DNA of 64,000 bases. Origin: Blastocatellia bacterium (GTDB taxonomy: Bacteria > Acidobacteriota > Blastocatellia > UBA7656 > JADIYM01). The stretch spans positions 7,350 to 71,349 of the forward strand of contig JBGAKX010000005.1 in NCBI GenBank assembly GCA_044224215.1, read 5' to 3'. Below the pieces are notes generated by a model. It was not told where the DNA came from, made no database searches, and saw only the letters and a list, made by a program, of their open reading frames with translations. Below, in pieces: positions 46,029 through 64,000 of the stretch. Position 1 is the stretch's first letter. The number at the start of each line of letters is the position of its first letter. The translations under genes and the position numbers were made by a program.

Positions 46029-48503
46029 ATGCGCCACGCTCATTCGCGGCCAGTTCTCAGCACCCGCCTGCTCGTCGTCATAGGATTGGTGCTCGTTGGC
46101 GGTGGATTCGCGGTCGTCGGTCTCTCCCAGGGCCGAGGTCCCGCAGCCGCTGCGACCGGGCCGCAGAAGGGCCCCGGCACCGGGTTCCTTCACAAAGATC
46201 ATTCGGGAATGGTGGCAATTCCGGGCCAGGCGGGGAAGACCCGCGAGCTGAAATGCGAGACGTGCCACGCGGTCTCCGTGGAGGCTCCGGATACAAACCG
46301 CTTCCCGGGTCCGGATCTCGAGAAGTACCCCGAGACGGCGAAGCTGGCCGCCACCGGCACCAAGCTGAACGGTCTTGGATTTCCCAAGTCGCACTCTGCG
46401 TGCGTCGAGTGTCACAAGGAGATCGCTCCCGGTCCTGGCGGCAAGTACTGCGGCCTTTGTCATGACACGCTGCAGAAGCTGCGCGTATTCCCGAAGGCGA
46501 ACGTCCAGCTGTCGCAGTTCGCCGACCGCTACTCGCACAAGGCCCACAAGGACTACTACGACAACAATCCCGACACCTTCAAGACCGCCGCGGTTTCAAG
46601 GCCCGCTGCGTCGCACGGCATTTTCGGGTCCGCGACCACGTTCGGTACGGCGGACATCCTGCGTGTCTCGTACGTCGCGCCGCCGGCTGAAAAGGGGCTT
46701 CGGTGCTCGACGTGCCACATCCCGGCGACGGGCGGCGTGAAGATGCAGCTGCCGCTGCATGCGAACTGCTTTGAATGCCACGCGAACGAAAAGATTGTCT
46801 CCAAGAAGGCCGACACCTATGCGATGAACTGCGTCGGCTGCCACGCCAACATGGCCTTGAACGATCCGACGGTCGACGAGAAGCTCAAGCCGGTCAAGGA
46901 CGCACTGAACGCGATCGCTCCGGTCATCGATCCGTTCCGTGTCGTCATCACGCCGTCCGGCGCGGGACACGCGCAGTTCAACCACGTCGGCGGCGCCGCG
47001 AAGTACCACGAGGTCCTCAAACCGGATGCCGGCAAGAGCGCCGGGAAGACCATCGAAGGCAAGATGGCCTGCCTGTTCTGCCACACATCGGTGGAGAAGG
47101 CCGCAACGCGCGCCCAGGTCATGGCGTTCGCGGTCAAGAAGACCGATCCTCAGCTCGTCCAGCCGCCGGCGTCCGCATGCGTGGTGTGCCACGTCCACGC
47201 GGTGCAGATGGTCGTTCCCGACAAGCCGTCCAAGACGGGCCGCGCGGGATGCACGGTCTGTCATACGGCGGCCGATGCCGCCAAGCCGGCTCCCGCAACA
47301 CACAGTCTGGGCGAGGCAGCTCCTGCGGCGACGCCGGCAAAGCCCGAGGCGACGCCTCCCGCGGCAAAGCCCGAACCGGCCAAGCCCACAACCGCGCCGG
47401 CGGCGAAACCCGAGCCTGCAAAGCCGGCGGCTCCGAAGCCCGAGCCGACAAAACCTGCGACCGCGCCGGCCGCGAAGCCCGTGGAAACCCCGAAGGTTGA
47501 GACGCCCAAACCGGCCGCGACGCCTGCGCCGGCAAAGCCCGAGACGCCAAAGGTCGAGCCACCCAAGCCCGCACCGACAGAAGCTCCCAAGACGGCCCCG
47601 GCGCCCGAACCCAAGCCTGCAGAACCCGCGGCGCCCAAGCCTCAGGCTGCACCTGCAAGCGGCGGCACGGTCGACTACTCAAAGGGCTACCCGCCCACAG
47701 CGCCCGGCTCGTCGCACCTGAGCCTACCGAACCCGATGCTGCTTGGGGATCCCAAGACCAGCGACCAGTGGGGTCTTGACGGAACGTGGGGGATTTCGAA
47801 GCTCACACACCAGGATCACTCCGAGAAGTACAAGGTTTCGTGCGCCACGTGCCATCACACGAACGGTGCAGGTAACGCGGCGATCGGCGAGCAGGTGCAG
47901 CGTTGCGTGAGCTGCCACAAGGCCGAGGGCGACGAGAAGAACCCGTCCAGCAAGGACGGCGACGAACTCTGGGTGAAGAACGCATTCCACCTGGGTGAAA
48001 CCGGTTGCATCGAGTGTCACAAGCGCGAGTCGGCCAAGAACCCGAATTCGAAGGCTGCGACGACGTGCGCAGGATGCCACCAGCCGAAAGGCAGCGCTGA
48101 CGCGGACCGCGTGCTGAAGGGCCTGTTCCGCGACGCTACGACGGCCGTCGCGTTCAAGGTTCCCGGCTTTGCAGACACGTGGCCTCGCTGGCAGACGCGG
48201 CCTGCCGGATTCGGACTGCTCGGTGGCCAAAGCCTCGCAGGGTCGTTCGGCGGCGCGTCTGTTCGGGCGCTCGTTTGCGACGTTCCGGCGCGACTCTGGT
48301 ATGCACAGTTCGCCGGGTCCGGGTCGCATCGCTCGGCGCGTGTCGTTTCGCACGCGCGGTGGCAACGGCATGAACCCTCGCATGCCGCGCGTTCTCGATC
48401 GCCGCAGGTTCAACTCGCGCCCTCGTGGCGTGGCGAACTGCCCAGACTCGCACTGGCGATCGCGCTCGTGGACCGGAACGCCGGGCACGGCTACAGGATC
48501 TGA
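46029..48503 (+). CDS. Multiheme cytochrome c, 13 CxxCH motifs, with an internal Pro/Ala/Lys-rich linker and a C-terminal tetraheme module
   Basis: Signal peptide/TM helix (LLVVIGLVLVGGGFAVVGL). Thirteen CxxCH motifs were counted (CETCH, CVECH, CGLCH, CSTCH, CFECH, CVGCH, CLFCH, CVVCH, CTVCH, CATCH, CVSCH, CIECH, CAGCH). The start lies 11 nt after the upstream gene stop. The last ~135 codons are Arg-rich and atypical (see findings). Confidence 0.8.
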   Translation: MRHAHSRPVLSTRLLVVIGLVLVGGGFAVVGLSQGRGPAAAATGPQKGPGTGFLHKDHSGMVAIPGQAGKTRELKCETCHAVSVEAPDTNRFPGPDLEKYPETAKLAATGTKLNGLGFPKSHSACVECHKEIAPGPGGKYCGLCHDTLQKLRVFPKANVQLSQFADRYSHKAHKDYYDNNPDTFKTAAVSRPAASHGIFGSATTFGTADILRVSYVAPPAEKGLRCSTCHIPATGGVKMQLPLHANCFECHANEKIVSKKADTYAMNCVGCHANMALNDPTVDEKLKPVKDALNAIAPVIDPFRVVITPSGAGHAQFNHVGGAAKYHEVLKPDAGKSAGKTIEGKMACLFCHTSVEKAATRAQVMAFAVKKTDPQLVQPPASACVVCHVHAVQMVVPDKPSKTGRAGCTVCHTAADAAKPAPATHSLGEAAPAATPAKPEATPPAAKPEPAKPTTAPAAKPEPAKPAAPKPEPTKPATAPAAKPVETPKVETPKPAATPAPAKPETPKVEPPKPAPTEAPKTAPAPEPKPAEPAAPKPQAAPASGGTVDYSKGYPPTAPGSSHLSLPNPMLLGDPKTSDQWGLDGTWGISKLTHQDHSEKYKVSCATCHHTNGAGNAAIGEQVQRCVSCHKAEGDEKNPSSKDGDELWVKNAFHLGETGCIECHKRESAKNPNSKAATTCAGCHQPKGSADADRVLKGLFRDATTAVAFKVPGFADTWPRWQTRPAGFGLLGGQSLAGSFGGASVRALVCDVPARLWYAQFAGSGSHRSARVVSHARWQRHEPSHAARSRSPQVQLAPSWRGELPRLALAIALVDRNAGHGYRI
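47272..47660 (+). repeat. Low-complexity tandem AKPEP/TPKVE-type repeats (Pro/Ala/Lys/Glu-rich linker) inside the 13-heme cytochrome gene
   Basis: Visible degenerate nucleotide repeats (aagcccgagcc..., gcgccggc...) encoding AAKPEPAKPTTAPAAKPEPAKPAAPKPEPTKP... Confidence 0.6.
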
Positions 48504-48662: not shown

Positions 48663-49523
48663 ATGAAAAGAACGATCCCTCTTCTTGCCCTCGTCGCGGC
48701 ACTCTCGGTCACCGCGTGGCTTTCCGACCGGACGAGCGCCCAGGATACGGCGTACAACTATGGGTCGTTCGATCACAAGGAGCACGACGCCGCACTCGAC
48801 AAATCCGCGCAGGAGCGCATCGCGTGCGACGTCTGCCATCGGCGCGACGACGCGAGCTCGCAGCTCTACTTTCCGGGCCACAATGCGTGCATTCAGTGTC
48901 ACGCGACGCAGTTCACGTCCCAGTCGCTCCAGATCTGCGCCGTCTGCCACAAGGACGTCGCGACGCAGGGGCGCGCGCTGAAGGACTTTCCCGCGCAGCG
49001 CAAGGACTACGGCGTCAGGTTCGACGGCGCGGGCAACAAGAGCCAGCACGTCGTCCACATGAAGGAAGCGCTCCCGGACGGCACCAAGATGTCGTGCTCC
49101 TTCTGCCATGCGGCGCAGGGCTCGAATATGGCATTCCCCTCGCACCCCGAGTGCTACGCGTGCCACACGCCAGGTGCGAATTCGAAGGCGGCGTCGCAGG
49201 AATTGAGCACGTGCTCGGTCTGCCACCCCGGCGCTACCGAGCCCAACTCCGAGATGCGACGTCTTGTCAGCACCCGACGCAATGACGCGCTGCCCTACCG
49301 GTTCCGGCATCTCGACCATAACCGGTCCGGCCGGATCGGCAACGATTGCGCCAAGTGCCACAACGACGCGGCCGGAATTCACGTGGCGTCCACCGCAACG
49401 CGCGAGCATCGGGTCAAACCGGGGTTCAACTGCTACGAGTGCCACCGAGGCGGGGGTCTGTCGCGGATCACTGAGACATCGTGCGGAAGCTGTCACGGCG
49501 TCGTCGTGTTCCCGCCGCTGTAG
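48663..49523 (+). CDS. Multiheme cytochrome c, 9 CxxCH motifs, periplasmic
   Basis: Signal peptide MKRTIPLLALVAALSVTAWLS. Nine CxxCH motifs (CDVCH, CIQCH, CAVCH, CSFCH, CYACH, CSVCH, CAKCH, CYECH, CGSCH). Confidence 0.8.
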   Translation: MKRTIPLLALVAALSVTAWLSDRTSAQDTAYNYGSFDHKEHDAALDKSAQERIACDVCHRRDDASSQLYFPGHNACIQCHATQFTSQSLQICAVCHKDVATQGRALKDFPAQRKDYGVRFDGAGNKSQHVVHMKEALPDGTKMSCSFCHAAQGSNMAFPSHPECYACHTPGANSKAASQELSTCSVCHPGATEPNSEMRRLVSTRRNDALPYRFRHLDHNRSGRIGNDCAKCHNDAAGIHVASTATREHRVKPGFNCYECHRGGGLSRITETSCGSCHGVVVFPPL

Positions 49524-49754
49524 ATTCATCCGTCCTCGAGCGCGCCGCGACAATCCTGCAGGAACAGGGCGTTGACATAACAGGGTCACGCACTTAGGAT
49601 TGTTGTCCTGCCGTGCGTCGAGCACGTGCACTCGGGACCTTAGCGAGATCCGACGTTGAAGCACCCAGGGAAGGCCGGCCACGAATGCGCTTCGGCGCCC
49701 GGTGTGAGCCGCACCCGTTTCTTGGAACACATTGAAGCCGGAGACCACACTTTC

Positions 49755-50291
49755 ATGAGATATGCCAAGGCCGTTCTCTGCATCTGCGCGCTGGCAGTAT
49801 TTGGCGCGCTGTCATTCCACGTTGCGACCTCGTCCGCTGCCTCCGTTGATCCGACCCAGGCTGCGGTTGACTACTCGAAGGGCTACCCTGTGGAAGCTCC
49901 GGGTGCGTCGCACATGAGCCTTCCGAACCCCATGCTGCTCGGCGACCCCAAGACGAGCGACCAGTGGGGCCTCGATGACACGTGGGGAATCGCGAAATTC
50001 ACGCACCAGGACCACACCGAGAAATACAAGGTGTCGTGCCATACGTGCCACCATACAAACGGCAAGGACAATGCCGCCCTGACCGAGAACGTCGACCGTT
50101 GCGTGAAGTGCCACATGGCCGAGGGCAACGAGAAGAACCCGACGAACGCGGCCGGCGACGAACTCGACATCAAGAACGCATTTCACATCGGTGAGACGGG
50201 CTGTATCGAGTGCCACAAGCGCGAATCAGAGAAGAATCCGAACTCGAAGGCCGCCGCGACATGCGCCGGCTGCCACGAGAAGAAGGGCTAA
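49755..50291 (+). CDS. Tetraheme cytochrome c (cytochrome c3/c7-like), paralogous to the C-terminal module of the 13-heme protein
   Basis: Start ATG at 49755 (MRYAKAVLCICALAVFGALSFHVATSSAAS signal peptide). Four CxxCH motifs. About 80 % identical over ~140 aa to residues encoded at 47671-48097. Confidence 0.8.
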   Translation: MRYAKAVLCICALAVFGALSFHVATSSAASVDPTQAAVDYSKGYPVEAPGASHMSLPNPMLLGDPKTSDQWGLDDTWGIAKFTHQDHTEKYKVSCHTCHHTNGKDNAALTENVDRCVKCHMAEGNEKNPTNAAGDELDIKNAFHIGETGCIECHKRESEKNPNSKAAATCAGCHEKKG

Positions 50292-50298
50292 CGCCATC

Positions 50299-50328
50299 AC
50301 ACGGGCCGTCCCCCAGGACGGCCCGTGT
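50299..50328 (+). terminator. Perfect 13-bp stem / 4-nt loop hairpin immediately after the tetraheme cytochrome gene
   Basis: ACACGGGCCGTCC-ccca-GGACGGCCCGTGT, 8 nt after the TAA stop. Seen directly. Confidence 0.55.
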
Positions 50329-50373
50329 CTCATCCCAGGGCGCCCCCGCGGCAACTGTTTGAATCGAAGCACC

Positions 50374-51927
50374 ATGTCGACACCACAGAATCCGGAAGTC
50401 GGACTCCCAGCCGATAGCCTACCCACCCAGGCGAAACAGACCTCAGGCACAAACTTCCTCGATCGCGTGCTCAAGCAGCTCAGCTCGGTTCGGTTTGGCG
50501 TATCGCTGCTGATCCTGATGATCATCCTCAGTATGACCGGGATGCTGATCATGCAGATCAACGTCGAGGGATTTGACAAGTACTACGCGACGCTCACCCC
50601 GTCGCAGCAATGGCTCTACACGGATCCGATTCTGCGAGCGATCCGCAACGTGACCGGATGGCGGCTCCAGGGATGGAACATCCTGTCGCTCGTCGACATC
50701 TACAAGTCGTACGTATTCATCACGCTGCTCGCCATTCTGACGCTGAACGTCATCCTCGCGTCGATAGACCACTTTCCAGGTGCGTGGCGTTACATCACCC
50801 GAAAGAAGCTCACGGCCTCGAAGCCGTATGTGCTTCACCAGACCTACAACGCGACGGTCGAGAGCGACGGAAGCGACGCCGAGGCGGCGCAGATTGCCGC
50901 CCTCTGTCGTCACCTTGGCTACACGCCGACGATCACGCGCGAGGCGTCGCGCACGACGGTCTTTGCAGAGCGCGGAGCGTGGAACCGGCTCGGTGCGTAC
51001 TTTGTCCACGTCGGCCTTCTCGTCATCTTCACTGCGGGATTTCTGACGTGGCGGTCGTCGCACACCGGCAGCATGACGCTCACGCCCGGCGCCGAGGCGA
51101 CGACGATTCAGGGCTTGCTGTACGACCTGGACCGCGTTCAGGTCGGCGAGTTCGCGCTTCCCTTCACCGTCGAATGCACCGACATCCAGCAGACGCTGAT
51201 CCGTCCGGACGGGTCGCTGGACGCGAGCAACACGGTCGACTGGTTCACGCGCATACGCATCGCGGACCCCGCAACGGGCAAGAACCTCGATGCCGACGTG
51301 CACATGAACAAGCCCGTCGACTATCGCGGCTACCGTTTCTTCCAGTCCAGTTATCAGAACGTTGCAAAGGCCCGGACGGTGACGCTGCAGATCGACCGGC
51401 CGAACGCGCAGCCTGAACTGGTCGAGTTGCGGGTGAACCAGCCGACGACGCTGTCCGACGGCCGTACGATCGTCTTTGCCAACTTCACCGGCAACGAGAC
51501 CGACGCAAACAACGCGACCGACTATGACAAGCCCGCCGCCGCGCTGCAGGTCGTCGGCGGAGCCGGGGGGCCGCCGCAGTCGTTCGTCGTTCGCGCGGCC
51601 GGAGCGCCTGTTGATTCGACGGGCGTCACTGCGCTCGGCGGTGCGACGGCCACGCTTGTGAGCTTTGAAAAGGTCGGAGCGAGCCACACGCTCTCGGTTC
51701 AGTACGACCCTGGTGCATGGGTTTTTTACATCGGCTCCGTTATTCTTGTGGCCGCATTGATGTCCGTGTTCTTCGCCTCGCACCGTCGAATCTGGTTTGT
51801 GCTTGAGAAGGACAAGGACGGAGCGCACAAGATCTATGTCGGCGGGCATGCCAACCGAAACCGCCCGGCGTTTGAGCGGCAGTTCAAGGACTTGGTAGCG
51901 GCGCTCGCGCCTACCGCGCCAGCGTGA
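50374..51927 (+). CDS. Cytochrome c biogenesis protein ResB/Ccs1 (system II, CcsB)
   Basis: N-terminal TM helix, large periplasmic domain, and C-terminal TM helices with the conserved His. ResB-like collinearity. Start ATG at 50374. The ORF-track start at 50191 overlaps the terminator. Confidence 0.75.
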   Translation: MSTPQNPEVGLPADSLPTQAKQTSGTNFLDRVLKQLSSVRFGVSLLILMIILSMTGMLIMQINVEGFDKYYATLTPSQQWLYTDPILRAIRNVTGWRLQGWNILSLVDIYKSYVFITLLAILTLNVILASIDHFPGAWRYITRKKLTASKPYVLHQTYNATVESDGSDAEAAQIAALCRHLGYTPTITREASRTTVFAERGAWNRLGAYFVHVGLLVIFTAGFLTWRSSHTGSMTLTPGAEATTIQGLLYDLDRVQVGEFALPFTVECTDIQQTLIRPDGSLDASNTVDWFTRIRIADPATGKNLDADVHMNKPVDYRGYRFFQSSYQNVAKARTVTLQIDRPNAQPELVELRVNQPTTLSDGRTIVFANFTGNETDANNATDYDKPAAALQVVGGAGGPPQSFVVRAAGAPVDSTGVTALGGATATLVSFEKVGASHTLSVQYDPGAWVFYIGSVILVAALMSVFFASHRRIWFVLEKDKDGAHKIYVGGHANRNRPAFERQFKDLVAALAPTAPA

Positions 51928-51937
51928 GGGAGACCGT

Positions 51938-53503
51938 ATGAGCACTATCAGTCGGATCGACGTTCACAACCTGCCATCGGGCAGCGAGCCGCTCTCGGCG
52001 CGCTTGACCGGCTGGCTGCCCGTCGCGATTCCCATCGCGCTGGCGGCGACCATCGTCTTCCTCCGGGTGCAGTTCGGCGAAACTCGCTTCCTGTATGACG
52101 GGACGCTGATTGTCCTCGCGCTCGTGTGCTTCCTGTTTGCGTCGGTGATCGGTCTCATCGAGATGTACGCGGACAAGTCGGTCCTCGGTCGATGGGGCCT
52201 CCTGATGGCATCGAGCGGCCTCATGTTCAACGCGGCCGCGTGGGGCACGCGTTGGGTCGCGGCCGGCGATCGCGAGGGCTGGATTCGATGGGTCTTCCGA
52301 TACGTGCCGTTTGCGAACCTCTATGACCTGTCGATCGCGTTTTCGATGGGCGCTGCACTGACGACCGTCATCATCTGTCGCAAGAAGGAGTCGCGCGTCG
52401 TCATGGGCGTGTCGATGTTGATGGCGGCGCTGATCGTCACGCTGGCGATCTTCCTCGGGCGCCAGTTCATCGATCTGCCGCCAGTGCTCGACAGCTACTG
52501 GCGGCCGATCCACGTCGGGATCGCGTCGACGAGCTACGGCGTCGTGCTCGTCTGCTTCAGCATTGCGGTGCTCTACCTGATCAAGGACGGGTTCAAGATC
52601 GAGGGGATGGGAGCGTTCGTCGCTATCCTCGGTCTCGGCATCTTTGGCACGATCAACCGCTTCTCGCTGATCACGAGCGGAACGTACGGCCTCAATGTCT
52701 TTTTTGGCGCGGGCGACGAGCGATCGACACTTCCGCTTCGCGCGACGGTACCGGTCGTTGGCCCGCTCATGGTCCTGGCAATGCTGCTGCTCGTCGGCGC
52801 GCTCGCGTGCTTCGCCGCCGACCTCTATCGAGGGGACGAGCGGCTCAAGAAGTACGGGTTCTGGGCGATGTGGGGCTCGGCTGCGGCGCAGCTTGGGTCG
52901 ATCGTGACGCTCTTCTACCAGATGAAGGCGATCAACGGCACGATCGCCTCGCGGATCGACCTGGCGTCGCAGGCTGGCTATCCCAAGGTTGCTGAATGGC
53001 TTACGGCCAACGGCATCCCGTTGACGACTGCCGGAGTGCAGCAGGCGAACAAGGTCTTCGAGATGAACAACGCGCAGCTCAGCGTGTCCGGAAATTCGAA
53101 CCCGGTCGAACTCGGCGCGCTGTTCACCCTGCTCGCCCTCACGGGGCTGGTTCTGATGTTCGGCTTCCGCACCGAGCGCGTCATCGAACGGCTGCCGTCG
53201 CTCGAGCGGCTCGACGAGCTCATGTACAAGACCGGCGCCGTTGCGTTTACCGGTCTCGCGATGCTGCTCATCACGGGAGCCGTCTGGGCGAACGAGTCGT
53301 GGGGACGGTACTGGGGCTGGGATTCCAAGGAGACGGGCGCGCTCGTGGCGTGGCTCGCGTACGCGGGCTTCCTGCACACGCGCATCGCTCACGGCTGGAG
53401 CGGACGACGCAGCGCGTACTTTGCCATCGTCGGATTCCTGCTCGTCATCTTCACGTATCTCGGCGTCAGCTACCTGCTGCCGGGCCTTCACTCCTACGCA
53501 TGA
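51938..53503 (+). CDS. ccsA: Cytochrome c-type biogenesis protein CcsA/ResC (heme exporter/lyase with WWD domain)
   Basis: Tryptophan-rich WWD motif (WGRYWGWDSKETGALVAWLAYA), flanking conserved His residues, and polytopic membrane topology. Confidence 0.85.
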   Translation: MSTISRIDVHNLPSGSEPLSARLTGWLPVAIPIALAATIVFLRVQFGETRFLYDGTLIVLALVCFLFASVIGLIEMYADKSVLGRWGLLMASSGLMFNAAAWGTRWVAAGDREGWIRWVFRYVPFANLYDLSIAFSMGAALTTVIICRKKESRVVMGVSMLMAALIVTLAIFLGRQFIDLPPVLDSYWRPIHVGIASTSYGVVLVCFSIAVLYLIKDGFKIEGMGAFVAILGLGIFGTINRFSLITSGTYGLNVFFGAGDERSTLPLRATVPVVGPLMVLAMLLLVGALACFAADLYRGDERLKKYGFWAMWGSAAAQLGSIVTLFYQMKAINGTIASRIDLASQAGYPKVAEWLTANGIPLTTAGVQQANKVFEMNNAQLSVSGNSNPVELGALFTLLALTGLVLMFGFRTERVIERLPSLERLDELMYKTGAVAFTGLAMLLITGAVWANESWGRYWGWDSKETGALVAWLAYAGFLHTRIAHGWSGRRSAYFAIVGFLLVIFTYLGVSYLLPGLHSYA

Positions 53504-53519
53504 CATTCCGTTGAGTCTC

Positions 53520-53550
53520 GGCGCGGTGTTCAACCCGTGAACGCCGCGCC
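53520..53550 (+). terminator. 13-bp stem (one G·U) / 5-nt loop hairpin after ccsA
   Basis: GGCGCGGTGTTCA-acccg-TGAACGCCGCGCC, seen directly. It overlaps the ORF-track start of the next gene, which argues for the downstream start at 53585. Confidence 0.5.
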
Positions 53551-53584
53551 GGGACTTCACCATCGTTTCCACGCCCACCTGATC

Positions 53585-54475
53585 ATGAGCGACACGACCA
53601 ACACGAACGCAAACATCGAGCTGATGAAGGCCAAGCTCGAAGCCCACAAGAAGGACAAGCTGCTGCATCTGCTGAGCGGGCTCTTCGTTGGCCTGCTGGT
53701 CGGATTCTTCGGAGCCAACTGGATGAACGCGCGGCCGGCGGCGATCGGACCCGCCGCCGGACAGGCAGCCGTGGGCGGTGCAGACCTTCCGGCCGATCAT
53801 CCCGCCGTCGAGGGCGGAGGCGCGGGAGCAGGAGCGGGCGCGGCGATGCCTGAGGTGCAGGCCAAGCTGAAGGCGGCGGACGACAACCCCCAGGACTTCG
53901 ACGCGCAGATGGAAGCCGCGGCGATGTTTTTCCGGATCAACAACTTTGCCAAGTCGGTCGAGTATCTTGAACGTGCGAGCAAGCTGAAGCCGAATGATCC
54001 GGACACGCTCGCAAACCTCGCGAGGGTCCAGTTGCGCAGCGGGGACATGGAGCAGGCAATTGCAAACGCCCGCAAAGCGTACGACCTGAAGCCCGACGAC
54101 TTTGACAACACCGTGCTGCTGGCCAATCTGCTGTTCGACACCGAGAAGTTCGTGGACGCGCAGCCGCTCTACGAAAAGGCGCTCGTCATGAAGCCCGACG
54201 ACGTCGACGTCCGCACGGATCTCGGCACGAGCTACTTCAAGGCGGGCAATCCCGACAAGGCCATCGCCACCTACCGCGAATCGCTCAAGCGCGACCCCAA
54301 GCACCAGAATACACTCGTCAACATCGCGCATGTCGCCATTGCAAAAGGTGACTCTGCGGTCGCCGAGGACGCGCTGACCAAGCTCGCGGCGGTCAATCCG
54401 CAGAACGCCGAACTCGCCAGCTTGCGGACGCAGCTCGACGAGCTCAAGAAGACTGGAAAGATTCCGACACACTAG
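53585..54475 (+). CDS. Membrane-anchored TPR-repeat protein
   Basis: TM helix (LLHLLSGLFVGLLVGFFGANW), Gly/Ala-rich spacer, then several TPR units (AKSVEYLERASKLKPNDPDTLANLARV...). Confidence 0.6.
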   Translation: MSDTTNTNANIELMKAKLEAHKKDKLLHLLSGLFVGLLVGFFGANWMNARPAAIGPAAGQAAVGGADLPADHPAVEGGGAGAGAGAAMPEVQAKLKAADDNPQDFDAQMEAAAMFFRINNFAKSVEYLERASKLKPNDPDTLANLARVQLRSGDMEQAIANARKAYDLKPDDFDNTVLLANLLFDTEKFVDAQPLYEKALVMKPDDVDVRTDLGTSYFKAGNPDKAIATYRESLKRDPKHQNTLVNIAHVAIAKGDSAVAEDALTKLAAVNPQNAELASLRTQLDELKKTGKIPTH

Positions 54476-54708: not shown

Positions 54709-57174
54709 ATGCCACAAGAGATCCAGAAGCGTCGGGATGTGCTCGCGGCCATCAAGAGTGTGGCCGCCATTGCAGACATCACCGCTGAGCATGCCGGGCA
54801 TTTCGAGCACGAGATCGACCTCGAAGTCATCGTCTACGGCCGCAACTACAACGGCAAGAAGGTCGGTCCGTACGTGCGCCTCCTCGTCTACCAGAACGGC
54901 GAGGACGTCATGCGCGAGGGCGAGTGGGGCGGGAACACGTTCTACGTCGTGGTCGAGGGCAAGGCCGACGTGCTGATCGACAGCGCGAACGGCATCGTCA
55001 AGGTCGCCGAGATATCGCAGGGCGACATCCTCGGCGAGATGTCGATCCTTGCGGGTGTGCCGCGATCCGCGACCGTTCGTGCACCGCAGGGCGGCGCCGT
55101 GAAGGTGCTCGAGGTTCAGCGTCCGGCGCTCCGGTTGCTGCGCAAGCTGCCGCATTTTGGTGAGTCGCTCGACCGGTCGTATCGCCATCACGGCAGAAAC
55201 CAGATTCTCCAGGTACTCGGGTCCGTGGAGCACCTGTCGACGGACGCGATCAAGGCGCTTGAGGGCATCTCGCAGTTCCGCGTGTACGGCAAGGGGCACG
55301 TCCTGTTCCGTGCGGGCGAGCAGATTCGTCGTGTCTACCTTCTCAAGACCGGCTGGCTGCGAATGTCGCAACAGGCTAAGACCTCGCTGCTCGCGGCGGT
55401 GCCCGGGTATGGCAACGTGAAATCGCTGTCGTGGGACACCCCGTCGCCGGACAGCTACTTTGGTCCGTCACACGCGTTCGGCCTGGAGGGCGTCCAGCAG
55501 GATGCAACGTGGCGCCACTCGGGCGTGCTGCTCGGACGCACCGAGATGCTCGAGGTGTCGGTGTCGGAGCTCCGAAAGAACCCGCAGCTCGTTGCGCTCC
55601 TTGGGCACGCGCTGCAGACCCTCGAGATCAAGGACGCGCAGGCCGACAAGGGTCCGCCGGCCCCGGTCGCCGAGGCGCAACGCGAACTGATCGCGAACGG
55701 GCTCGTCGACGGGACGAACCTGTTGCTGATGGACATGGAGCTGTGCGTCCGGTGCGGCAACTGCTCGCTTGCCTGCAATCACCAGCACGGCAACTCGAGA
55801 CTGCTGCGACGGGGCATTTCGATCACGCGCCCCGAGACGCTCAAGAAGAACTCGCATACGCAGCACCTCATGAATCCGTCGGTCTGCATGCACTGCATGG
55901 ACCCCGAGTGCATGACGGGCTGTCCGACGGGAGCGATCGGTCGCTTCCCCGGCGGCTATGTCGACATCGATCCGAAGACGTGCATCGGGTGCGGCGACTG
56001 CGCGACGCAGTGCCCGTACGACGCCATCTCGCTGATCGCGCGACGGCCAAAGCCTGGTGAGAAATCGAATGCGCTTGTCGAGATGTTCAGCCTGGCGCCT
56101 GCGCCGATACCCGAGTCGGTCGAAACGACCGAGGACCTCGTTGCGGTCAAGTGCAACCTTTGCAGCAATACGCCGCTGAACCCGCCGGGCGCGAAGTCGC
56201 GCAAGTACAGCTGCGAAGAGAACTGTCCAACTGGTGCGCTTCTGCGTGTGAGCCCGCGTGTCTACTTTGACGAGATCGCCAACATCGAGGGCGTCATCTT
56301 CAAGGACGATACGCACATCGTTTCCAAACACACGTCGCACCGCGATCCCAAGAAGCGACTCATTCACCTGCTCGGCATCGTGCTCACGCTGGCGCTTGCC
56401 GCGGTGAGCGTGGCGGCGCTTTACAGAATCGGCCGCGACAATCCGCTCCTTGGATCGTGGTTCAACTTCTACTGGTTCACCGGGATTGTTGGTCTTCTCG
56501 CGATCACGTGGGTGATGTTGTACCCGATCCGCCGACAGATCTTCCGCAAACGCGTCATTCCGTTGCGCTACTGGATGCTGTCGCATGCCTACATGGGCGT
56601 GATCGCGGGCGTGCTCCTTCTCATGCACGCCGGGACGCGCGGTGGCGGCCTGCTGACCACGTCGCTGATGATCACGTTCGACCTGGTCATCCTGACGGGG
56701 TTGTGGGGCATCGCCACGTACTACGTCGTGCCGAGAGTGCTCACAAAGATCGAGGAGCAACCGCTCCTCGTCGACGACCTCATCCTCAGACGGCAGGAAC
56801 TGACTGAGGAGATCGCGGACACGGTCGCCCGCGCGTCGCAGCCGACGCGTGATGCGATCGAGAAGGGCGTCATTCCGCACTTCCTGACGTTTGGCTATCT
56901 GCTGGGACAGTATTTCTCGGCAAAGCCGCTCGCGGTGAATACTGCAGAAGCCCGCAAGCATTTTGAGCAGACGGCGATGACGCTTCCTCCCAACGAGCGC
57001 GATTCGTTCTTTGGCGCTGTCGAGCGCGCGGCGACGCTGCGTCGGGTCGACGCGCTCATCCTGCTGCACCGGTCGCTCAAGGCGTGGCTCGCACCGCACG
57101 TCCTGACGACGTCGCTCATGCTCGCCCTGATGATCGTGCACATCATTCAGGTCATCTATTTCGCCGTGAAATGA
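54709..57174 (+). CDS. Cyclic-nucleotide-binding (2x cNMP) domain protein fused to a four-cluster [4Fe-4S] ferredoxin module and a C-terminal His-containing polytopic membrane domain
   Basis: cNMP-binding signature GEMSIL...RSATVRA and a second degenerate CAP-like domain. Cysteine motifs: CVRCGNCSLAC, CMHCMDPECMTGCP, CIGCGDCATQCP, and CNLCSN...C-x3-CP (the NrfC/PsrB-like tetra-cluster pattern). At least 5 C-terminal TM helices. Confidence 0.7.
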   Translation: MPQEIQKRRDVLAAIKSVAAIADITAEHAGHFEHEIDLEVIVYGRNYNGKKVGPYVRLLVYQNGEDVMREGEWGGNTFYVVVEGKADVLIDSANGIVKVAEISQGDILGEMSILAGVPRSATVRAPQGGAVKVLEVQRPALRLLRKLPHFGESLDRSYRHHGRNQILQVLGSVEHLSTDAIKALEGISQFRVYGKGHVLFRAGEQIRRVYLLKTGWLRMSQQAKTSLLAAVPGYGNVKSLSWDTPSPDSYFGPSHAFGLEGVQQDATWRHSGVLLGRTEMLEVSVSELRKNPQLVALLGHALQTLEIKDAQADKGPPAPVAEAQRELIANGLVDGTNLLLMDMELCVRCGNCSLACNHQHGNSRLLRRGISITRPETLKKNSHTQHLMNPSVCMHCMDPECMTGCPTGAIGRFPGGYVDIDPKTCIGCGDCATQCPYDAISLIARRPKPGEKSNALVEMFSLAPAPIPESVETTEDLVAVKCNLCSNTPLNPPGAKSRKYSCEENCPTGALLRVSPRVYFDEIANIEGVIFKDDTHIVSKHTSHRDPKKRLIHLLGIVLTLALAAVSVAALYRIGRDNPLLGSWFNFYWFTGIVGLLAITWVMLYPIRRQIFRKRVIPLRYWMLSHAYMGVIAGVLLLMHAGTRGGGLLTTSLMITFDLVILTGLWGIATYYVVPRVLTKIEEQPLLVDDLILRRQELTEEIADTVARASQPTRDAIEKGVIPHFLTFGYLLGQYFSAKPLAVNTAEARKHFEQTAMTLPPNERDSFFGAVERAATLRRVDALILLHRSLKAWLAPHVLTTSLMLALMIVHIIQVIYFAVK

Positions 57175-58758: not shown

Positions 58759-60435
58759 ATGAAGAAGTCGCAACTCATCATTACCATCCTGATGCTCGTC
58801 ATTCTGGTCGCGGCTGCATTTGGCACGCGTTACCTGAATGTGAATCTCGGCGCCGTGCCCTGGTACGGCTGGACGGCACTCGCGATCGTGCTGATCGTCA
58901 TCGGAGTGATCGGCCTGATACTCGAGACGTCACGCGACCGGCGGGACCTGAAGGCTGCCACGATCGAGGCGGAACGCGAAGCCGCCGAACGGCTCGAGGC
59001 ATCCAAGCACCCTGACCTTGCGGTAAACGTCGCCGCATTGGACCCCGGTGGACCCGCGTATCCGCACCCTGTCATCAACTCGGCCACGTGCATCGGCTGT
59101 CATGCGTGCGTGGACGCTTGCCCGCATGACGTGCTCGCAATCGTGAACGGCATCTCCACTCCGATCGCGCTCGATCAGTGCATGGAGGACACCGGGTGCC
59201 AGGTTGAATGCCCGACCAGCCCCAAGTCCTGCATCGTGGTCAACACAAAGAAGAAGATTCCGGAGCGGAAGGTTCCAAAGCGCGACAACCGATTCATGAC
59301 CAATGTTCCCGGCATCTACCTGATCGGCGACGTATCGGGAGTTCCACTCATCAAGAACGCGATCAACGAGGGCGGCGCGGTCATCGAGCACATCGCCGAG
59401 GACCTTCAGAAGAAGGGCGGCAACGGCCAGGCGGAATACGATGTCGCGATCGTCGGCGTCGGACCCGGCGGTCTTTCGGCCGCGGCGCTCGCAAAGCAGA
59501 AGGGTCTGCGCTACGTAGCGCTCGAACAGGACAAGGTCGTCGCCACGATTCAGGCCTACCCGGCCGGCAAGTACGTGTTCTTCAAGCCCGACACGGTCGA
59601 GACGGACGGCGGCATCGAGCTACCCGGCGCCGGTCTTCCAAAGGAGCAGATGATCGGCTCGTGGCTTGACACGATCAAGAACAACTCGCTCAAGATCAAC
59701 GAGTACGAGACGTGCAAGAGCGTCAAGAACGAGAACGGCCTCTTCGTGGTCCGCACCGATTCGGAGAAGACCAAGCAGAGCGCCGAGTACAGGTCACAGA
59801 CGGTCATCATCGCCGTGGGTGGCCGCGGCACGCCGATGCGCCTCAAGGTGCCAGGCGAAGAGATCAAGCTGCAGGTGACGCCGAGCGCTCCGGTTATGTC
59901 GTCCTTCTGCGTCAAGTGCGGCCAGCCGCGCGAGGGCGCGGCGACCGTCTGTCCGAAGTGCAACGCTGCGTATCCGTCTCGCATTCCGCCGCCGTTCGAG
60001 GACGAGAAGGTGAAGTATCGCCTCAGCGATCCGAATCTTTTCTCGGGCAAGCACTGCATCGTCGTTGGCGCCGGCAACTCGGCGATCGAGTGCGCGGTGG
60101 ATCTCGCGTCGTATCGCTCGGAAGACGGCACGCAGATCATCGGATGGCGCGACAACGTCGTCACGCTCGTCATCCGGAGCGACTTCAAGGGCGACCTGAA
60201 GCTCGGCAACAAGATGCTGTGCTATGAGTGCATGGACGAGGGGAAGATCACGACCCACTTCCGAAAGGCATTCAAGGAGATCACGCCGACCGAGGTCGTG
60301 CTCATGAGCGCGCGCGAGCGCGACCCGGCCACGGCAAAGGAGACCGACCGAATCCGCAACGACTACATCTTTGCGCTGATCGGCGGCGACAAGCCGACCA
60401 AGTTCCTCGAGAGCATGGGAATCCAGATCGGCTAG
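58759..60435 (+). CDS. Membrane-anchored 2x[4Fe-4S] ferredoxin domain fused to an FAD/NAD(P)-binding (thioredoxin-reductase-like) oxidoreductase with an inserted zinc ribbon
   Basis: Two N-terminal TM helices. Ferredoxin motifs [12 protein letters not shown] and C-x5-C-x3-CP. Two Rossmann GxGxxG motifs ([25 protein letters not shown]). Zinc ribbon CVKCG...CPKCN. Confidence 0.7.
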
Positions 60436-60506: not shown

Positions 60507-61373
60507 ATGAACGAAGATCTGCTGAGCTTGATGCCAACAACCGAGATGACGCGACGGCGCTTTGTCGTCACGTCGCTTGCGGCCGGATTTGCGCTTGCGG
60601 TGCAGCCCGTATCCGCGCAGACCGTGATCACGACCGATTCACAAGGTCTCGAGGCCGGCGAAGTCCAGATCCCGGTTTCAGACGGGAAGATGCCTGCCTA
60701 CCGCGCGATGCCGCTCAAGGGAAAGAATTTCCCGGTGGTGCTCGTCGTTCAGGAGATCTTCGGCGTCCACGAGCACATTCGGGACGTGTGCCGGCGTTTC
60801 GCAAAGCTTGGACACATGGCGATCGCGCCGGAGCTTTACGCGCGACAGGGCGATGTATCAAAGATGACCGACATCCAGGAGATCATCACAAACGTCGTCT
60901 CAAAGGTGCCGGATTCGCAGGTGATGTCCGATCTCGACGCCACCGCGGCATGGGCCGGCGCATCCGGCAAGGCCGACGTGAAGAAGCTCGGCATCACCGG
61001 CTTCTGCTGGGGGGGCCGCATCGTGTGGCTCTATGCTGCCCACAACCCCAAGCTCAAGGCCGGAGTCGCCTGGTACGGCCGTCTCGTCGGTCAGCCATCG
61101 GAACTCCAGCCAAAGTATCCGATCGATCTCGTCAAGGAACTGAAGGCACCCGTGCTTGGCCTCTACGGCGCAAGCGACCAGGGAATCCCCGTCGATACGG
61201 TCGAGAAGATGCAGGCGGCCTTGAAGTCGGCCGGCAGCAAGTCCGAGATCGTGCTCTACCCCGACACGCCTCACGGTTTCAACGCCGACTACCGCCCGTC
61301 ATACCGCAAGGAACAGGCGCAGGACGGTTGGAAACGGCTGAACGCCTGGTTCGCCAGGTACGGCGCGGCGTAG
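60507..61373 (+). CDS. Dienelactone hydrolase family protein with twin-arginine (Tat) signal peptide
   Basis: Tat motif [28 protein letters not shown] nucleophile motif GFCWGG. Conserved D and H (YPDTPHGF). Confidence 0.8.
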
Positions 61374-61427: not shown

Positions 61428-64000
61428 TTACCGTCCGTCGGGCGGCGGAGGTGCAACGATCTTCTTTGGAGGATTCTTCCTGAGCTCCTCCATCAGGATC
61501 GTCACGGCGCGCTCGAGCGTCGGGTCCTGGCCCTTGGCCACCAGGTCAGGTCTGTCGACGACTTCGATGTCGGGCGACACGCCCTCGTTCTCGACGGCCC
61601 ACTTGCCGTCGGTGTCGAGGAACCGGAATCGCGGAGCGCTGATGTTGCCGCCGTCGACAACGCTCGGATTTCCGGAGATGCCGATCAGCCCGCCCCACGT
61701 GCGCGTTCCGATCAGCGGTCCAAGCCCGCGCTTCCGGAAGTAATACGGGAACGCGTCTCCGCCGGAGCTCGAATATCCATTGATCAGCGTCACCTTGGGA
61801 CCATTGTTCGTATAGTTCGGAATCGTGTTCAGCTCGAGCCCGCGCTGTGACCAGTAGTTCAGAAGGGGCCGGTCGAGAAGCTCGATCATCCGATCCGGGA
61901 TGAATCCGCCGCCGTTGTAGCGGTCGTCGATGATCAGCGCCTCCTTCTGAGCCTGCTGATAGAAGCCCTTGAAGAGCTCGCGATTCCCTTCGTTCGCCGT
62001 GTTCGGCAGGTGGATGTAACCGATGCGACCGCCAGACGCCTTCTCGACATAGGCGCGCCGCGACTGCACCCAGTCCAGGTACCGCAGGTTCGTCTCCTTG
62101 CGGATCGGTCGCACCATCTCGTCGTGCGCCCCTGCCGTCTCGGGTCGTGAGTTCAGGGTCAGCGTCACGATCTCGCCCGCGCGGTTCTCCATCAGCTCGT
62201 AGAAGTTCTTCACTCCCTTTGTGGAACGGCCGTTCACGGCGAGTATGAACTCGCCCTCGGACGCCTTGATCCCGGGCTCTGTCAGCGGCGACCGGAAGTC
62301 GTCCGACCAGTTTTCGCCGGGAAAGATCTTCGCGATCTTGAAGTAGCCCGACGGGTCGGCCACGATGTCGGCCCCCAGCAGGCCGGTGTCGACACGCTCG
62401 ACCGATTCGGAATCGCCCGGCGTCACGTATGCGTGGCCCGTGTTGAGCTCACCGGCAATTTCGCCAAACACGTAGTCGAGGTCGGACCTCGTTGCGACGA
62501 AGGGTATGAGCGGCTGGTACTTCGCGCGGACTCCGTTCCAATCGATCATGTCCATCCCCGGGTCGTAGAACCAGTCACGCAGGATCCTCCAGACGTCGAC
62601 GTACTCCTGCTGCCATTCCTGGCGCGGATCGATCTTGAGGTTCATCTTGTCGAGCGCCAACTGGCCGTCGCCTGCCTTCTGGCCGGACCGCACACCGATG
62701 ATCCCGTAGTTGCCCTGGCTCTGATACAGGACCTGTTTGCCGTCGGCCGACAGCGCGTATCCGGTGACGCCGTCGAGAATCGTCTGCTTCTCCTTGGCCT
62801 CGACGTTGTAGAACTCGAGCTTCGAGCCGGGACCCTGCCCTGTGATGTAGAGCACGCCGTCCGGTGTGGCGGCAAGACCGCCGTAGTTCCCGGGCGCGCC
62901 CGGTATGGCCCGCACGCGCCGGTCGAATCCGTCGACGTCGATCTTCACGACGGGAGCCGCCGTAGCGGCGGCCTGGGCGCCCTCAGCGGGTTTTGGCGGC
63001 TCGGGTGCGGGTGTCGCGGTAGCCGCCGGCTTCTCCTCCTTGGGCTTCTCCTCGTCGCTCTTTGGCAGGAACAGCGCCGGACCGTCCTTTGAGAGCACCG
63101 CCACGTAGACACGCGTCGGGTTCGTGTACACGTAGTTGAATTCAAAGCTGCTGAACGTGAGGTTGAAGTCGCGGTTCGAGACGAAGTACAGGTACCGGCC
63201 CTTCGGGTCGAACGCCGGGCTGTCGTCGTTCGTCATGCCCGTCGACAGCTGATAGTTCTTGCCATCCGTGAGGTTGTGCACCCAGATCGTCGAGTACTGC
63301 GTCTCGGCGTTCTTGGTGTACGCAATCCACTTGCTGTCCGGAGCCCACGTGTAGGTTCCGATGTCGTTGGTCGTGCTGTGGTCCACGTCGACGATCTTGC
63401 CCGTATCGATGTCGATGTACCGCAGACGCTGGTTCTTGTCGCCCCACGCGAGCTTCTTCGAATCCGGCGACCAGATGGCCGGGAACATCCAGATGTTCAG
63501 CCCGTTCGTCAGCCGGCGCTCCTCGCCCGTACCATCCTGGCGACGCAGATACAACTCGTACTCGCCCGTCCGGTCGCTCTGATATGCGATCCACTTCCCG
63601 TCGGGAGACCATGCGGCCGCAAGCTCGCGGATACCGGGCGTATTGGTGAGGTTGCGGATCTCGCCTTCCTTTGCGGGCACGGTGAAGATGTCGCCGCGCG
63701 CCGCGAACACCGCACGCGCGCCCGTCGGCGAGATGTCGAACGAGTCGATGTTGTCCTTGACGTTCTTGAAGTACGGGATCGTGTGCGGGAAGTCGCCCGT
63801 GACCACGATCGGCACGCGCTCGTCACGACCGCTCGCGACGTCATAGCGGTAGATGTAACCGCCGCACTCGTACACCACGGAATTGGGACCGGCACTCGGC
63901 CACAGCACGTCGAAGTCGGCGTGCGTCGTGACCTTCTTCAGCTGTTTGGTCTTGGTGTCGTAGGCAAACAGGTTGTAGAGCTTCTCGCGATCCGACGCGA
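61428..64000 (-). CDS. Tricorn protease homologue (beta-propellers, PDZ, S41-type peptidase domain); N-terminus lies beyond the window end
   Basis: PD40/WD40-like propeller repeats, a PDZ domain and a C-terminal S41 protease core (GGGFIPDRMIELL, GTRTWGGLIGIS). Tricorn is over 1000 aa, and the frame stays open to coordinate 64000. Confidence 0.8.
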   Translation of the reverse strand, partial: ASDREKLYNLFAYDTKTKQLKKVTTHADFDVLWPSAGPNSVVYECGGYIYRYDVASGRDERVPIVVTGDFPHTIPYFKNVKDNIDSFDISPTGARAVFAARGDIFTVPAKEGEIRNLTNTPGIRELAAAWSPDGKWIAYQSDRTGEYELYLRRQDGTGEERRLTNGLNIWMFPAIWSPDSKKLAWGDKNQRLRYIDIDTGKIVDVDHSTTNDIGTYTWAPDSKWIAYTKNAETQYSTIWVHNLTDGKNYQLSTGMTNDDSPAFDPKGRYLYFVSNRDFNLTFSSFEFNYVYTNPTRVYVAVLSKDGPALFLPKSDEEKPKEEKPAATATPAPEPPKPAEGAQAAATAAPVVKIDVDGFDRRVRAIPGAPGNYGGLAATPDGVLYITGQGPGSKLEFYNVEAKEKQTILDGVTGYALSADGKQVLYQSQGNYGIIGVRSGQKAGDGQLALDKMNLKIDPRQEWQQEYVDVWRILRDWFYDPGMDMIDWNGVRAKYQPLIPFVATRSDLDYVFGEIAGELNTGHAYVTPGDSESVERVDTGLLGADIVADPSGYFKIAKIFPGENWSDDFRSPLTEPGIKASEGEFILAVNGRSTKGVKNFYELMENRAGEIVTLTLNSRPETAGAHDEMVRPIRKETNLRYLDWVQSRRAYVEKASGGRIGYIHLPNTANEGNRELFKGFYQQAQKEALIIDDRYNGGGFIPDRMIELLDRPLLNYWSQRGLELNTIPNYTNNGPKVTLINGYSSSGGDAFPYYFRKRGLGPLIGTRTWGGLIGISGNPSVVDGGNISAPRFRFLDTDGKWAVENEGVSPDIEVVDRPDLVAKGQDPTLERAVTILMEELRKNPPKKIVAPPPPDGR

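Follow-up and report, generated by a model that had tools for sequence, protein, structure and literature searches.

How electrons cross the inner membrane during extracellular electron transfer (EET) is known for a few model bacteria, in which quinol-oxidising cytochromes provide the exit, and we know of no such step described for soil Acidobacteriota or for the many uncultured groups with large multihaem cytochromes. We examined a 64,000-nucleotide stretch from a Blastocatellia bacterium (hereafter the window; assembly GCA_044224215.1, contig JBGAKX010000005.1, positions 7,350 to 71,349). Here, a gene for a transmembrane (TM)-anchored ferredoxin-flavoprotein (hereafter the target) follows directly, and on the same strand, a gene for an FHA-domain cytochrome with seven c haems. 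Close by is the gene for an 821-amino-acid (aa) iron-sulfur (FeS) membrane protein with cyclic nucleotide monophosphate (cNMP)-binding domains. A first-pass annotation had proposed that the target feeds electrons from reduced nicotinamide adenine dinucleotide (phosphate), NAD(P)H, into these two upstream proteins. We find that the target carries a circularly permuted flavoprotein and that the three genes are tied together by linkage and by gene fusions. We consider it fairly probable that the target is the cytoplasmic pyridine-nucleotide end of a three-protein transmembrane conduit to periplasmic multihaem cytochromes, with an order of carriers that we infer from its parts. The core of three genes, in many cases merged into two or one, is a concrete candidate for linking NAD(P)H straight to periplasmic cytochromes.

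A broader proposal is held more tentatively, at somewhat below even confidence: that these proteins form a previously unrecognised, widespread class of quinone-independent NAD(P)H:multihaem-cytochrome oxidoreductases. The class would be an NADPH oxidase analogue built from non-homologous parts, switched by cyclic AMP/cyclic GMP and phospho-threonine, and would supply the missing inner-membrane EET step in Acidobacteriota and other phyla. If quinones are bypassed, the system would be a controlled valve for electrons through which energy is dissipated and not conserved, and if this is true, models of redox balance and of metal and humic reduction for these organisms would change.

Anatomy and circular permutation of the flavoprotein

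The target is a real gene, given that its protein has one 100% identical database entry and more than 1,300 homologues in a protein collection search, full-length matches (55–88% identity) coming from Acidobacteriota (Vicinamibacterales and Blastocatellia). The open reading frame (ORF) starts with ATG and spans exactly the coordinates noted in the first-pass annotation. Homologues are currently named “NAD(P)-binding domain-containing protein” or “thioredoxin reductase”, and across homologue clusters the names are just “thioredoxin reductase” and FHA labels. The parts listed from the sequence at the outset (two TM helices, a 2x[4Fe-4S] ferredoxin and a two-dinucleotide-fold flavoprotein with an embedded C-x2-C...C-x2-C ribbon) were all recovered by ORF analysis, Pfam, hydropathy and Cys conservation. 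In the TM hairpin, G31 and W38 are invariant in homologue alignments, and the charge distribution around the two helices fits an N-in/C-in arrangement.

The ferredoxin domain matches the bacterial-type Pfam models Fer4, Fer4_2, Fer4_7 and Fer4_10. Its first cluster motif is canonical (C111-x2-C114-x2-C117-x3-C121P); the second is atypical (C141-x5-C147-x3-C151P) and comes with an extra invariant C158. These eight Cys are invariant in 64–66 of 67 aligned sequences, so that, read from sequence alone, eight putative cluster ligands are at hand. In an alignment of 63 homologues the twelve Cys of the ferredoxin and the ribbon are invariant except for C114 (at least 90%), as are G233/G235/G238, G437/G439, G190-D191 and R473. 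The CIGCH in the ferredoxin (59089-59103, residues 111-115) mimics the haem c pattern CxxCH, and naive CxxCH counts therefore give eight instead of seven in fused homologues and one in the stand-alone protein; it is not a haem site.

Family-wide context was drawn from 71 loci (65 from species-representative genomes and 6 added through identical-protein look-ups), in which ORFs were searched with the window proteins and of which 66 are non-redundant. The zinc ribbon is an insertion of ~35 aa where the flavin adenine dinucleotide (FAD) and NAD(P) domains meet, and it is present in 50 of 66 loci, doubled in one and missing from 15 (Pyrinomonadaceae, Bryobacteraceae and others). We take it to be an accessory, dispensable element because of these 15 loci. 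The doubled case is a fused homologue of 1,161 aa (L045, 3669-7151) whose several extra CxxC...CxxC ribbons are spread over the flavoprotein insertion and the linker that joins FHA to TM. Repeated gain of ribbons appears to have occurred among the relatives of the target.

The flavoprotein (residues 227-557) matches Pyr_redox_3 at 104 bits (cut-off 30) and Pyr_redox_2 at 87.5 bits (cut-off 26.1), and its FAD motif G233-x-G235-x-x-G238, NAD(P) motif G437-x-G439 and GD motif G190-D191 are all invariant, with position 442 of the NAD(P) motif always Ala or Ser in the homologue alignments. Its best NCBIfam match is YpdA/Bdr (TIGR04018), at 127.6 bits against a cut-off of 339.9, and the low-Mr thioredoxin reductase (TrxR) model TIGR01292 gives 64.8 bits against 343. 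The best PDB sequence matches are likewise to Bdr (7a7b and 7a76). An AlphaFold2 model of the target has a predicted local distance difference test score (pLDDT) of 72 overall, with most of the flavoprotein at about 75-95 and a few loops at 53-70. Foldseek searches of this model against the PDB put Bdr/YpdA on top (E 2e-18), followed by TrxR-type ferredoxin-NADP reductases (FNRs; 2zbw, 3ab1, 3lzw, 6gar/6gas and 5ygq) and TrxRs, all with probability 1.00 and E values from 1e-18 to 1e-11 across Bdr, TrxR and TrxR-type FNR. From sequence and predicted fold, the flavoprotein is best described as TrxR-fold, nearest to YpdA/Bdr and to the TrxR-type FNRs, with a ferredoxin covalently attached.

The flavoprotein has no conserved redox-active CxxC: of C488/C491, C488 is Val in 49 of 67 sequences, and C491 and C319 are conserved as single cysteines. 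The motif that reads GGGPCG in Bdr (7a7b, 7a76) reads GVGPGG in the target, and the position of Cys14, conserved and functional in Bdr, is Gly or Ala in the homologues inspected. An FNR-like chemistry is favoured over a disulfide reductase on these three grounds. Together with the fused ferredoxin, the absent thiol chemistry is suggestive of YumC-like, NAD(P)H-dependent ferredoxin reduction, and a weak hint of NADPH comes from R473-S474, which is invariant and follows strand two of the NAD(P) domain. The comparison proposed in the first-pass annotation, with the glutamate-synthase small subunit, NfnB and TrxR families, held for the TrxR side (YpdA/TrxR-like) and failed for the other. Membership in GltD/NfnB was rejected, as there is no Fer4_20 match and GltD-like NCBIfam models match over short stretches at ~30 bits against cut-offs of 343-516. 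Membership in Bdr or TrxR proper was also rejected, with scores far under the family cut-offs and the expected cysteines missing. The dehydrogenase domains FAD_binding_8 and NAD_binding_6 of FNR-type enzymes have no Pfam match in the target, whose dehydrogenase is Pyr_redox_3. The flavoprotein is no member of an unrelated, well-characterised family with a different conserved context, and the first-pass interpretation survives on this point.

In the canonical order of the fold, the N-terminal FAD part is followed by the NAD domain and then by the C-terminal FAD part with the GD motif. The target departs from this order: its GD segment stands between the ferredoxin domain and the first GxGxxG. 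Residues 166-214 match 7jyp 290-340 of 343, 3cty 238-305 of 319 and lipoamide dehydrogenases at ~300-345, and the C-terminus (527-557) matches YpdA 234-264 of 328, so that the chain ends where the GD segment would canonically begin. When residues 222-558 were placed before residues 160-221, this rearranged construct, and only this construct, was collinear with the canonical proteins. Across the artificial junction, construct residues 271-391 align to chain 212-322 of 326 of YpdA 7a76, 202-384 to E. coli TrxR chain 138-300 and 203-373 to positions 135-277 of 300 of the TIGR01292 model; AhpF and lipoamide dehydrogenase align across it likewise. Rearrangement raised the YpdA score to 137.8 bits, compared with 127.6 for the whole protein and 129.1 for a native-order control fragment, and the TrxR score to 71.1 bits, compared with 64.8 and 66.5. 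The AlphaFold2 model places a strand (186-190) and a helix (197-219) with block-mean pLDDT of 86-90 (63 for residues 191-200) directly before β1 (227-232). The order ferredoxin, GD segment, GxGxxG is common to all relatives found in a search of 1.84 billion representatives (2,069 matches, 378 of them at E <1e-30, typically over query residues ~99-369). At the level of sequence, the flavoprotein is clearly a circularly permuted member of the TrxR fold. The polypeptide has no C-terminal extension and lacks the C-terminal subdomain of TrxR-type FNRs, which brings an aromatic/His residue to the re-face of the flavin.

Partner proteins, topology and gene linkage

Genes of the 821-aa type are currently annotated as “cyclic nucleotide-binding domain-containing protein”. 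In the N-terminal part of the protein (54709-55600, residues 1-300), the first of the two cNMP domains has a canonical phosphate-binding cassette (GEMSILAGVPRSAT) and the second is degenerate, and the FeS domain that follows is NrfC/DsrO-like. Within the family, 16 Cys and His 553, 626, 640, 787, 797 and 811 are conserved at 98-100%. When 23 of the C-terminal membrane modules, at 18-59% identity, were compared, the only invariant residues were four Gly, two Trp and four His. Charge counts orient TM3 and TM5 both inside-to-outside, which gives an inner His pair 626/797 and an outer pair 640/811. A stand-alone homologue of 291 aa, from locus L072, has the same two H-x13-H pairs and aligns to the window module with hhalign at E 1.5e-6, the four His in register. 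In a per-member Pfam scan of the 23 modules, sub-threshold matches were obtained to Ni_hydr_CYTB in six (best 3.5e-5), DUF4405 in five (2e-4) and Ferric_reduct in five (1.7e-3), plus DUF4079 and Cytochrome_B, and these point jointly to cytochrome b families of the di-haem type. Binding of haem b has been shown for a purified DUF4405 protein, which has four central His (PMC11334425). Hence, we describe the four-His (His4) module as a new or divergent putative di-haem b family. Its AlphaFold2 model is mediocre (pLDDT 69).

Tat (twin-arginine) export of the 821-aa protein, which its N-terminal KRRDVLAAI might suggest, was rejected: the family consensus is HR instead of RR, the following stretch includes charged residues, two cNMP domains come next and the charges put the FeS domain inside.

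Positive-inside counts agree with the order of domains in the fusions, FHA-TM-haems-TM-ferredoxin. They place the FHA domain of the cytochrome and the four-cluster FeS domain of the 821-aa protein in the cytoplasm and the seven c haems in the periplasm, as predicted from sequence features. The ferredoxin, FAD and NAD(P) domains are assigned to the cytoplasm, because haem c must be on the outer face in the fusions. A periplasmic ferredoxin would have spoken against the first-pass interpretation, and both the topology check and the fusions put it on the cytoplasmic side.

The three genes stay together well beyond the window. In 57 of 71 loci, the target homologue has the cNMP-FeS-membrane gene directly upstream, and truncated contigs make up most of the other loci. 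In 39 of the 66 non-redundant loci, the FHA/seven-haem cytochrome and the target homologue form a single ORF of 950-1,160 aa. These ORFs run FHA, TM, seven CxxCH, TM, ferredoxin, flavoprotein, and they match the target from residue ~29 onwards: TM1 is replaced by the cytochrome c and the periplasmic GA(V/L)PWYGW is retained. A tetrahaem-fused homologue at 35% identity abuts a 778-aa protein with cNMP and Fer4_11 domains and the same membrane module. At least nine other clusters at 50% identity have the ferredoxin-flavoprotein fused to the His4 module itself, which is C-terminal in P0326, P0356, P0363 and P0380 and N-terminal in P0370, P0379 and P0381; P0373 and P0324 give further matches that do not depend on our module profile. 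One module fusion is followed by a 20-haem cytochrome gene. Given these fusions, coincidental adjacency of the target and its partners is excluded, and the proposed link to the upstream FeS membrane protein and FHA-cytochrome is supported.

A census of 125 cluster representatives of at least 400 aa gives the distribution of architectures. Fusions to three or more haem c motifs account for 41 representatives (22 of them also with FHA), fusions to the His4 module for 9 and FHA alone for 4; the other 71 consist of the ferredoxin-flavoprotein alone, and almost all of these have a TM helix at the N-terminus. The first-pass annotation had called the membrane anchor and the cluster context unusual, and within the family they turn out to be the rule. 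Its remark that soluble homologues are common applies to distant unpermuted relatives, not to the target's own family.

One compact cluster (L072, 6996-15027; also L073) encodes a stand-alone His4 module, a ferredoxin-flavoprotein, two cytochromes (one with 20 and one with 31 haems) and a putative outer-membrane barrel of 543 aa. The 291-aa membrane protein lies directly before the ferredoxin-flavoprotein, which has 437 aa and a single TM helix. L072 is a distant, probably Bacteroidota-like locus whose genome encodes proteins with type IX secretion system (T9SS) tails. From its gene content the cluster looks like a complete conduit of the porin-cytochrome type with an NAD(P)H entry.

Some Blastocatellia loci carry an AAA ATPase gene (AAA_2/AAA_5/MCM-like, ~380-410 aa) between the FHA-cytochrome and flavoprotein genes (L002, 1912-3042; L005, 7007-9972; L011; L012/L013). 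It is sometimes joined by genes for a PIG-L deacetylase-like protein and a 161-aa unknown protein, and the insertion is missing from the window.

A proposed electron conduit and competing explanations

In the proposed conduit, NAD(P)H would reduce the FAD of the permuted TrxR-like flavoprotein, and the electrons would pass singly to the target's own two [4Fe-4S] clusters and from there to the four [4Fe-4S] clusters of the cNMP-binding protein. They would cross the membrane through two stacked b haems, inner then outer, held by the four invariant His of the module, leave onto the FHA-cytochrome's seven periplasmic c haems and continue to the 4-, 9- and 13-haem cytochromes encoded upstream, which are the likely downstream carriers. 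The TM hairpin would keep the flavoprotein docked at the complex, and in many relatives it is just what connects the flavoprotein to the cytochrome. Gating or assembly of the conduit is the probable task of the cyclic-nucleotide and FHA (phospho-threonine-binding) domains. Control by cyclic nucleotide and phospho-threonine is plausible given the canonical first cNMP cassette and the retained GR, SRxH and NG residues of the FHA domain, and gating would make sense because such a valve would cost the cell both membrane potential and reducing power. On standard bioenergetic grounds we infer that the conduit runs outward: electrons leaving the cytoplasm would go downhill in redox potential and with the help of the membrane potential, and both would oppose inward flow to NAD(P)+.

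Several observations weigh against this interpretation. The membrane module has no significant fold match (best Foldseek E against the PDB 0.58), its hidden Markov model profile found no match among PDB sequences, no Pfam cytochrome b model reached threshold, and a Pfam scan of the window module at E up to 10 gave nothing relevant. The AlphaFold2 model of the target falls below pLDDT 50 over the ferredoxin domain and to about 60 over the TM helices. NAD(P)H is assigned as the probable substrate from motifs. Because di-haem b proteins often react with quinones, quinone independence is a tentative part of the proposal. Our full-text literature searches found no biochemical work on any family member and no description of the family or system. 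Ferredoxin-flavoprotein-only proteins make up 71 of the 125 representatives, and genomic context was looked at for only a few of them. At one locus (L003, 3424-11656; also L004) a 62%-identical homologue lies beside genes for FtsW/RodA, PP2C, a Ser/Thr kinase, a 308-aa FHA protein and a PilZ protein, with no adjacent FeS-b gene; this context points to a link with Ser/Thr and cyclic di-GMP signalling. A module-fused homologue at L075 has no adjacent cytochrome.

The di-haem b module might instead be a quinone/quinol site, so that the chain of flavoprotein and FeS clusters would serve as an alternative NAD(P)H:quinone oxidoreductase, and/or the module would pass electrons from quinol to the c haems in the manner of CbcL, CymA and NarI-type proteins. 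The known inner-membrane EET steps are quinol oxidases (ImcH, CbcL and CymA), and the best sub-threshold match of the module, Ni_hydr_CYTB, is a family of quinone-reactive cytochromes b. However, the predicted cofactors form a complete path from the cytoplasmic FeS clusters to the periplasmic haems without a quinone, the single-polypeptide fusions of flavoprotein, ferredoxin and module resemble through-conduits of the NOX type, and no quinone-site motif turned up, although no search aimed at such motifs was made; we consider this explanation unlikely. A conduit running in reverse, with periplasmic or extracellular donors delivering electrons to the cytoplasmic ferredoxin domain or to NAD(P)+, appears distinctly improbable. 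Its cofactors are all reversible in principle, and some bacteria do take up electrons through multihaem conduits, but inward movement would go against the membrane potential and uphill from c-haem potentials to NAD(P)+, and the conserved core contains no coupling-ion subunit in the loci examined. Also on the side of a reverse direction, TrxR-type FNRs operate both ways (PMC10294844).

In place of bulk electron flow, the flavoprotein and FeS clusters could report the redox state of NAD(P)H or of the cytochrome pool to FHA/Ser-Thr-kinase, cNMP and PilZ signalling, as a redox-sensing complex. In favour of this are the FHA and cNMP-binding domains within the core proteins, the presence of FHA in 26 of the 125 representatives, the PP2C, Ser/Thr kinase, FHA and PilZ neighbours at L003/L004, and the AAA ATPase inserted in some loci. 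We nevertheless hold a sensor to be very improbable: it would not need as many cofactors as six FeS clusters, seven c haems and two putative b haems, flux is suggested by the 9- to 31-haem cytochromes and the putative outer-membrane barrel with which the family is associated, and the core is without an output domain such as a kinase, a cyclase or a DNA-binding domain. Barely plausible to us is a thiol-disulfide reductase of the Bdr/TrxR kind, driven by NADPH or ferredoxin and acting, for example, on a low-molecular-weight disulfide or on a membrane thioredoxin-like protein for cytochrome c maturation. YpdA/Bdr and TrxR are indeed nearest in sequence and fold, C491 and C319 are conserved singly, and ResB/CcsA lie nearby in the window, with CcsA abutting one distant homologue. 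Against this stand the missing CxxC and the Gly or Ala at the Bdr Cys14 position, the low family scores (128 versus a cut-off of 340 for TIGR04018; 65 versus 343 for TIGR01292), ResB/CcsA adjacency in only 3 of 71 loci, and fusion partners that are haem c and haem b modules, not thioredoxin folds. The outward conduit from NAD(P)H to the periplasmic cytochromes remains the interpretation that we favour.

Surrounding genes and known systems

The features of the target and of the genes around it are collected in Table 1.

Table 1 Features of the target gene and of neighbouring genes in the window
Feature	Position	Strand	Basis
Target gene, TM-anchored ferredoxin-flavoprotein, 558 aa	58759-60435	+	ORF, Pfam and NCBIfam matches, >1,300 homologues
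TM hairpin: TM1 residues 6-24, short periplasmic loop with conserved GAVPWYGW, TM2 37-56	58774-58926	+	Hydropathy, charge counts
Predicted 2x[4Fe-4S] ferredoxin domain, residues ~100-160	59056-59238	+	Pfam Fer4 models (match 103-153), eight invariant Cys
Relocated C-terminal FAD segment, residues ~166-220: strand, G190-D191, helix	59254-59418	+	Matches last ~50 residues of TrxR/lipoamide dehydrogenase chains
FAD-binding domain, first part, residues 226-370, GxGxxG 233-238, E256	59434-59868	+	Pyr_redox_3 positions 2-148; YpdA 7a7b residues 6-140; invariant columns
Cys4 zinc-ribbon insertion, C384-x2-C387-x10-C398-x2-C401	59908-59961	+	Cys invariant where ribbon present
NAD(P)-binding domain, residues ~413-525, G437-A-G439-N-S-A442, invariant R473-S474	59995-60333	+	Pfam, TrxR alignments, conservation
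FHA domain, one TM (228-252) and seven-haem cytochrome c, 501 aa	57196-58701	+	FHA and cytochrome c3/c7 Pfam matches, seven CxxCH
Two cNMP-binding domains, four [4Fe-4S] (16 invariant Cys) and five-TM module, 821 aa	54709-57174	+	Pfam, NCBIfam, conservation
Putative di-haem b membrane module, residues 535-821 of the 821-aa protein	56311-57174	+	H626-x13-H640 in TM3, H797-x13-H811 in TM5
13-haem MtrC-like cytochrome, 824 aa, MtrC/MtrF-like domains, 13 CxxCH, secreted	46029-48503	+	Pfam, haem motif count
9-haem cytochrome, 286 aa, 9 CxxCH, secreted	48663-49523	+	Pfam, haem motif count
Tetrahaem c3-type cytochrome, secreted	49656-50291	+	Pfam, haem motif count
System II cytochrome c biogenesis: ResB, CcsA, CcmH/CycH-like TPR protein	50191-54475	+	Pfam; context only, in the target's clade

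Homologues of the 9-haem cytochrome flank the core in 32 of 71 loci, and the two loci nearest to that of the window, L008 and L009, share its extended order (9-haem cytochrome, c3, ResB, CcsA, TPR, core). The ResB, CcsA and TPR genes lie near the core in just three of the 71 loci, and the role in cytochrome c maturation that these neighbours suggest is therefore unlikely. A second biogenesis-gene neighbourhood for the family is found at L078 (2-274), where a 441-aa homologue with a single TM helix begins right beside the C-terminus of CcsA.

Directly before the 13-haem cytochrome gene lies a gene for a secreted 622-aa protein with Big_9/cadherin-like Ig domains and an HbpS-like haem-degrading domain (44150-46018). 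Downstream of the target, after a gap of 72 nucleotides, a dienelactone hydrolase with a twin-arginine-like signal is encoded (60508-61373; 60228, the start given in the ORF list, is an artefact lying upstream), and this gene is not kept beside the core in other loci. The region is flanked by genes for a 7TM receptor with an intracellular HD hydrolase domain (38891-41212) and, on the reverse strand, a tricorn-type protease (61428-63908; PD40, PDZ_Tricorn and Peptidase_S41), a homologue of which is also near the core in L009 and L001. A promoter and terminator scan of the window gave counts that were not above chance; one sigma-70-like promoter match lies ahead of the c3 gene (49572-49600).

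Compared with characterised proteins, the flavoprotein shares with the TrxR-type FNRs (B. subtilis YumC 3lzw, C. tepidum 3ab1, T. thermophilus 2zbw, B. cereus FNR1/2 6gar/6gas and R. palustris 5ygq) a two-dinucleotide TrxR-like fold with FAD and NAD(P) motifs and no CxxC. Those enzymes partner with ferredoxin, whereas the target has its ferredoxin covalently attached, and it further differs by its permuted order, the N-terminal 2x[4Fe-4S] domain and TM hairpin, the inserted ribbon, the lack of the usual C-terminal subdomain and an identity of ~17%. YpdA/Bdr (TIGR04018; 7a7b, 7a76) belongs to the same Pyr_redox_3 subgroup and is the best match in sequence and fold, but the target lacks the GGGPCG Cys and is permuted, ferredoxin-fused, membrane-bound and set among cytochromes. 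NfnB/GltD-like enzymes, including the Cac_0764-type Fnor class, combine a Fer4_20 helical FeS domain with Pyr_redox_2 in canonical order and are soluble (PMC12221290). They use FAD, two [4Fe-4S] clusters and NAD(P)H in one polypeptide, as predicted for the target, and mediate one-electron transfer at the level of ferredoxin; the target differs in its bacterial-type Fer4 dicluster, its permuted flavoprotein of the Pyr_redox_3 type and its membrane anchor.

At the level of the whole system, the Hmc, Tmc and DsrMKJOP complexes of sulfate reducers combine, as proposed here, periplasmic multihaem c, a membrane cytochrome b and FeS proteins that link both sides. The system described here differs in having a cytoplasmic four-cluster FeS domain, an NAD(P)-flavoprotein instead of an HdrD-like CCG protein, no NrfD-like subunit and built-in cNMP and FHA domains. 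It would follow the same logic as NOX/FRE and Fre-MsrQ, with cytoplasmic NAD(P)H, a flavin, two putative b haems on H-x13-H pairs in two parallel helices and an acceptor outside, and in the fused relatives the flavoprotein, ferredoxin and His4 module form one polypeptide. In contrast to NOX/FRE, its dehydrogenase is TrxR-like, a wire of six FeS clusters is interposed, the acceptor is an attached haem c (covalently or genetically), and the membrane module, which no Pfam model matches at threshold, is built of five TM helices with an insert of 120 aa on the cytoplasmic side. By this analogy the system would work like NOX while being non-homologous and not a member of that family, and it does not belong to the Hmc/Tmc/Dsr complexes either. 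It is a known kind of system, here from a large uncharacterised family with a new or divergent membrane module, which offers a clear instance of circular permutation in the TrxR fold and defines a new putative di-haem b module.

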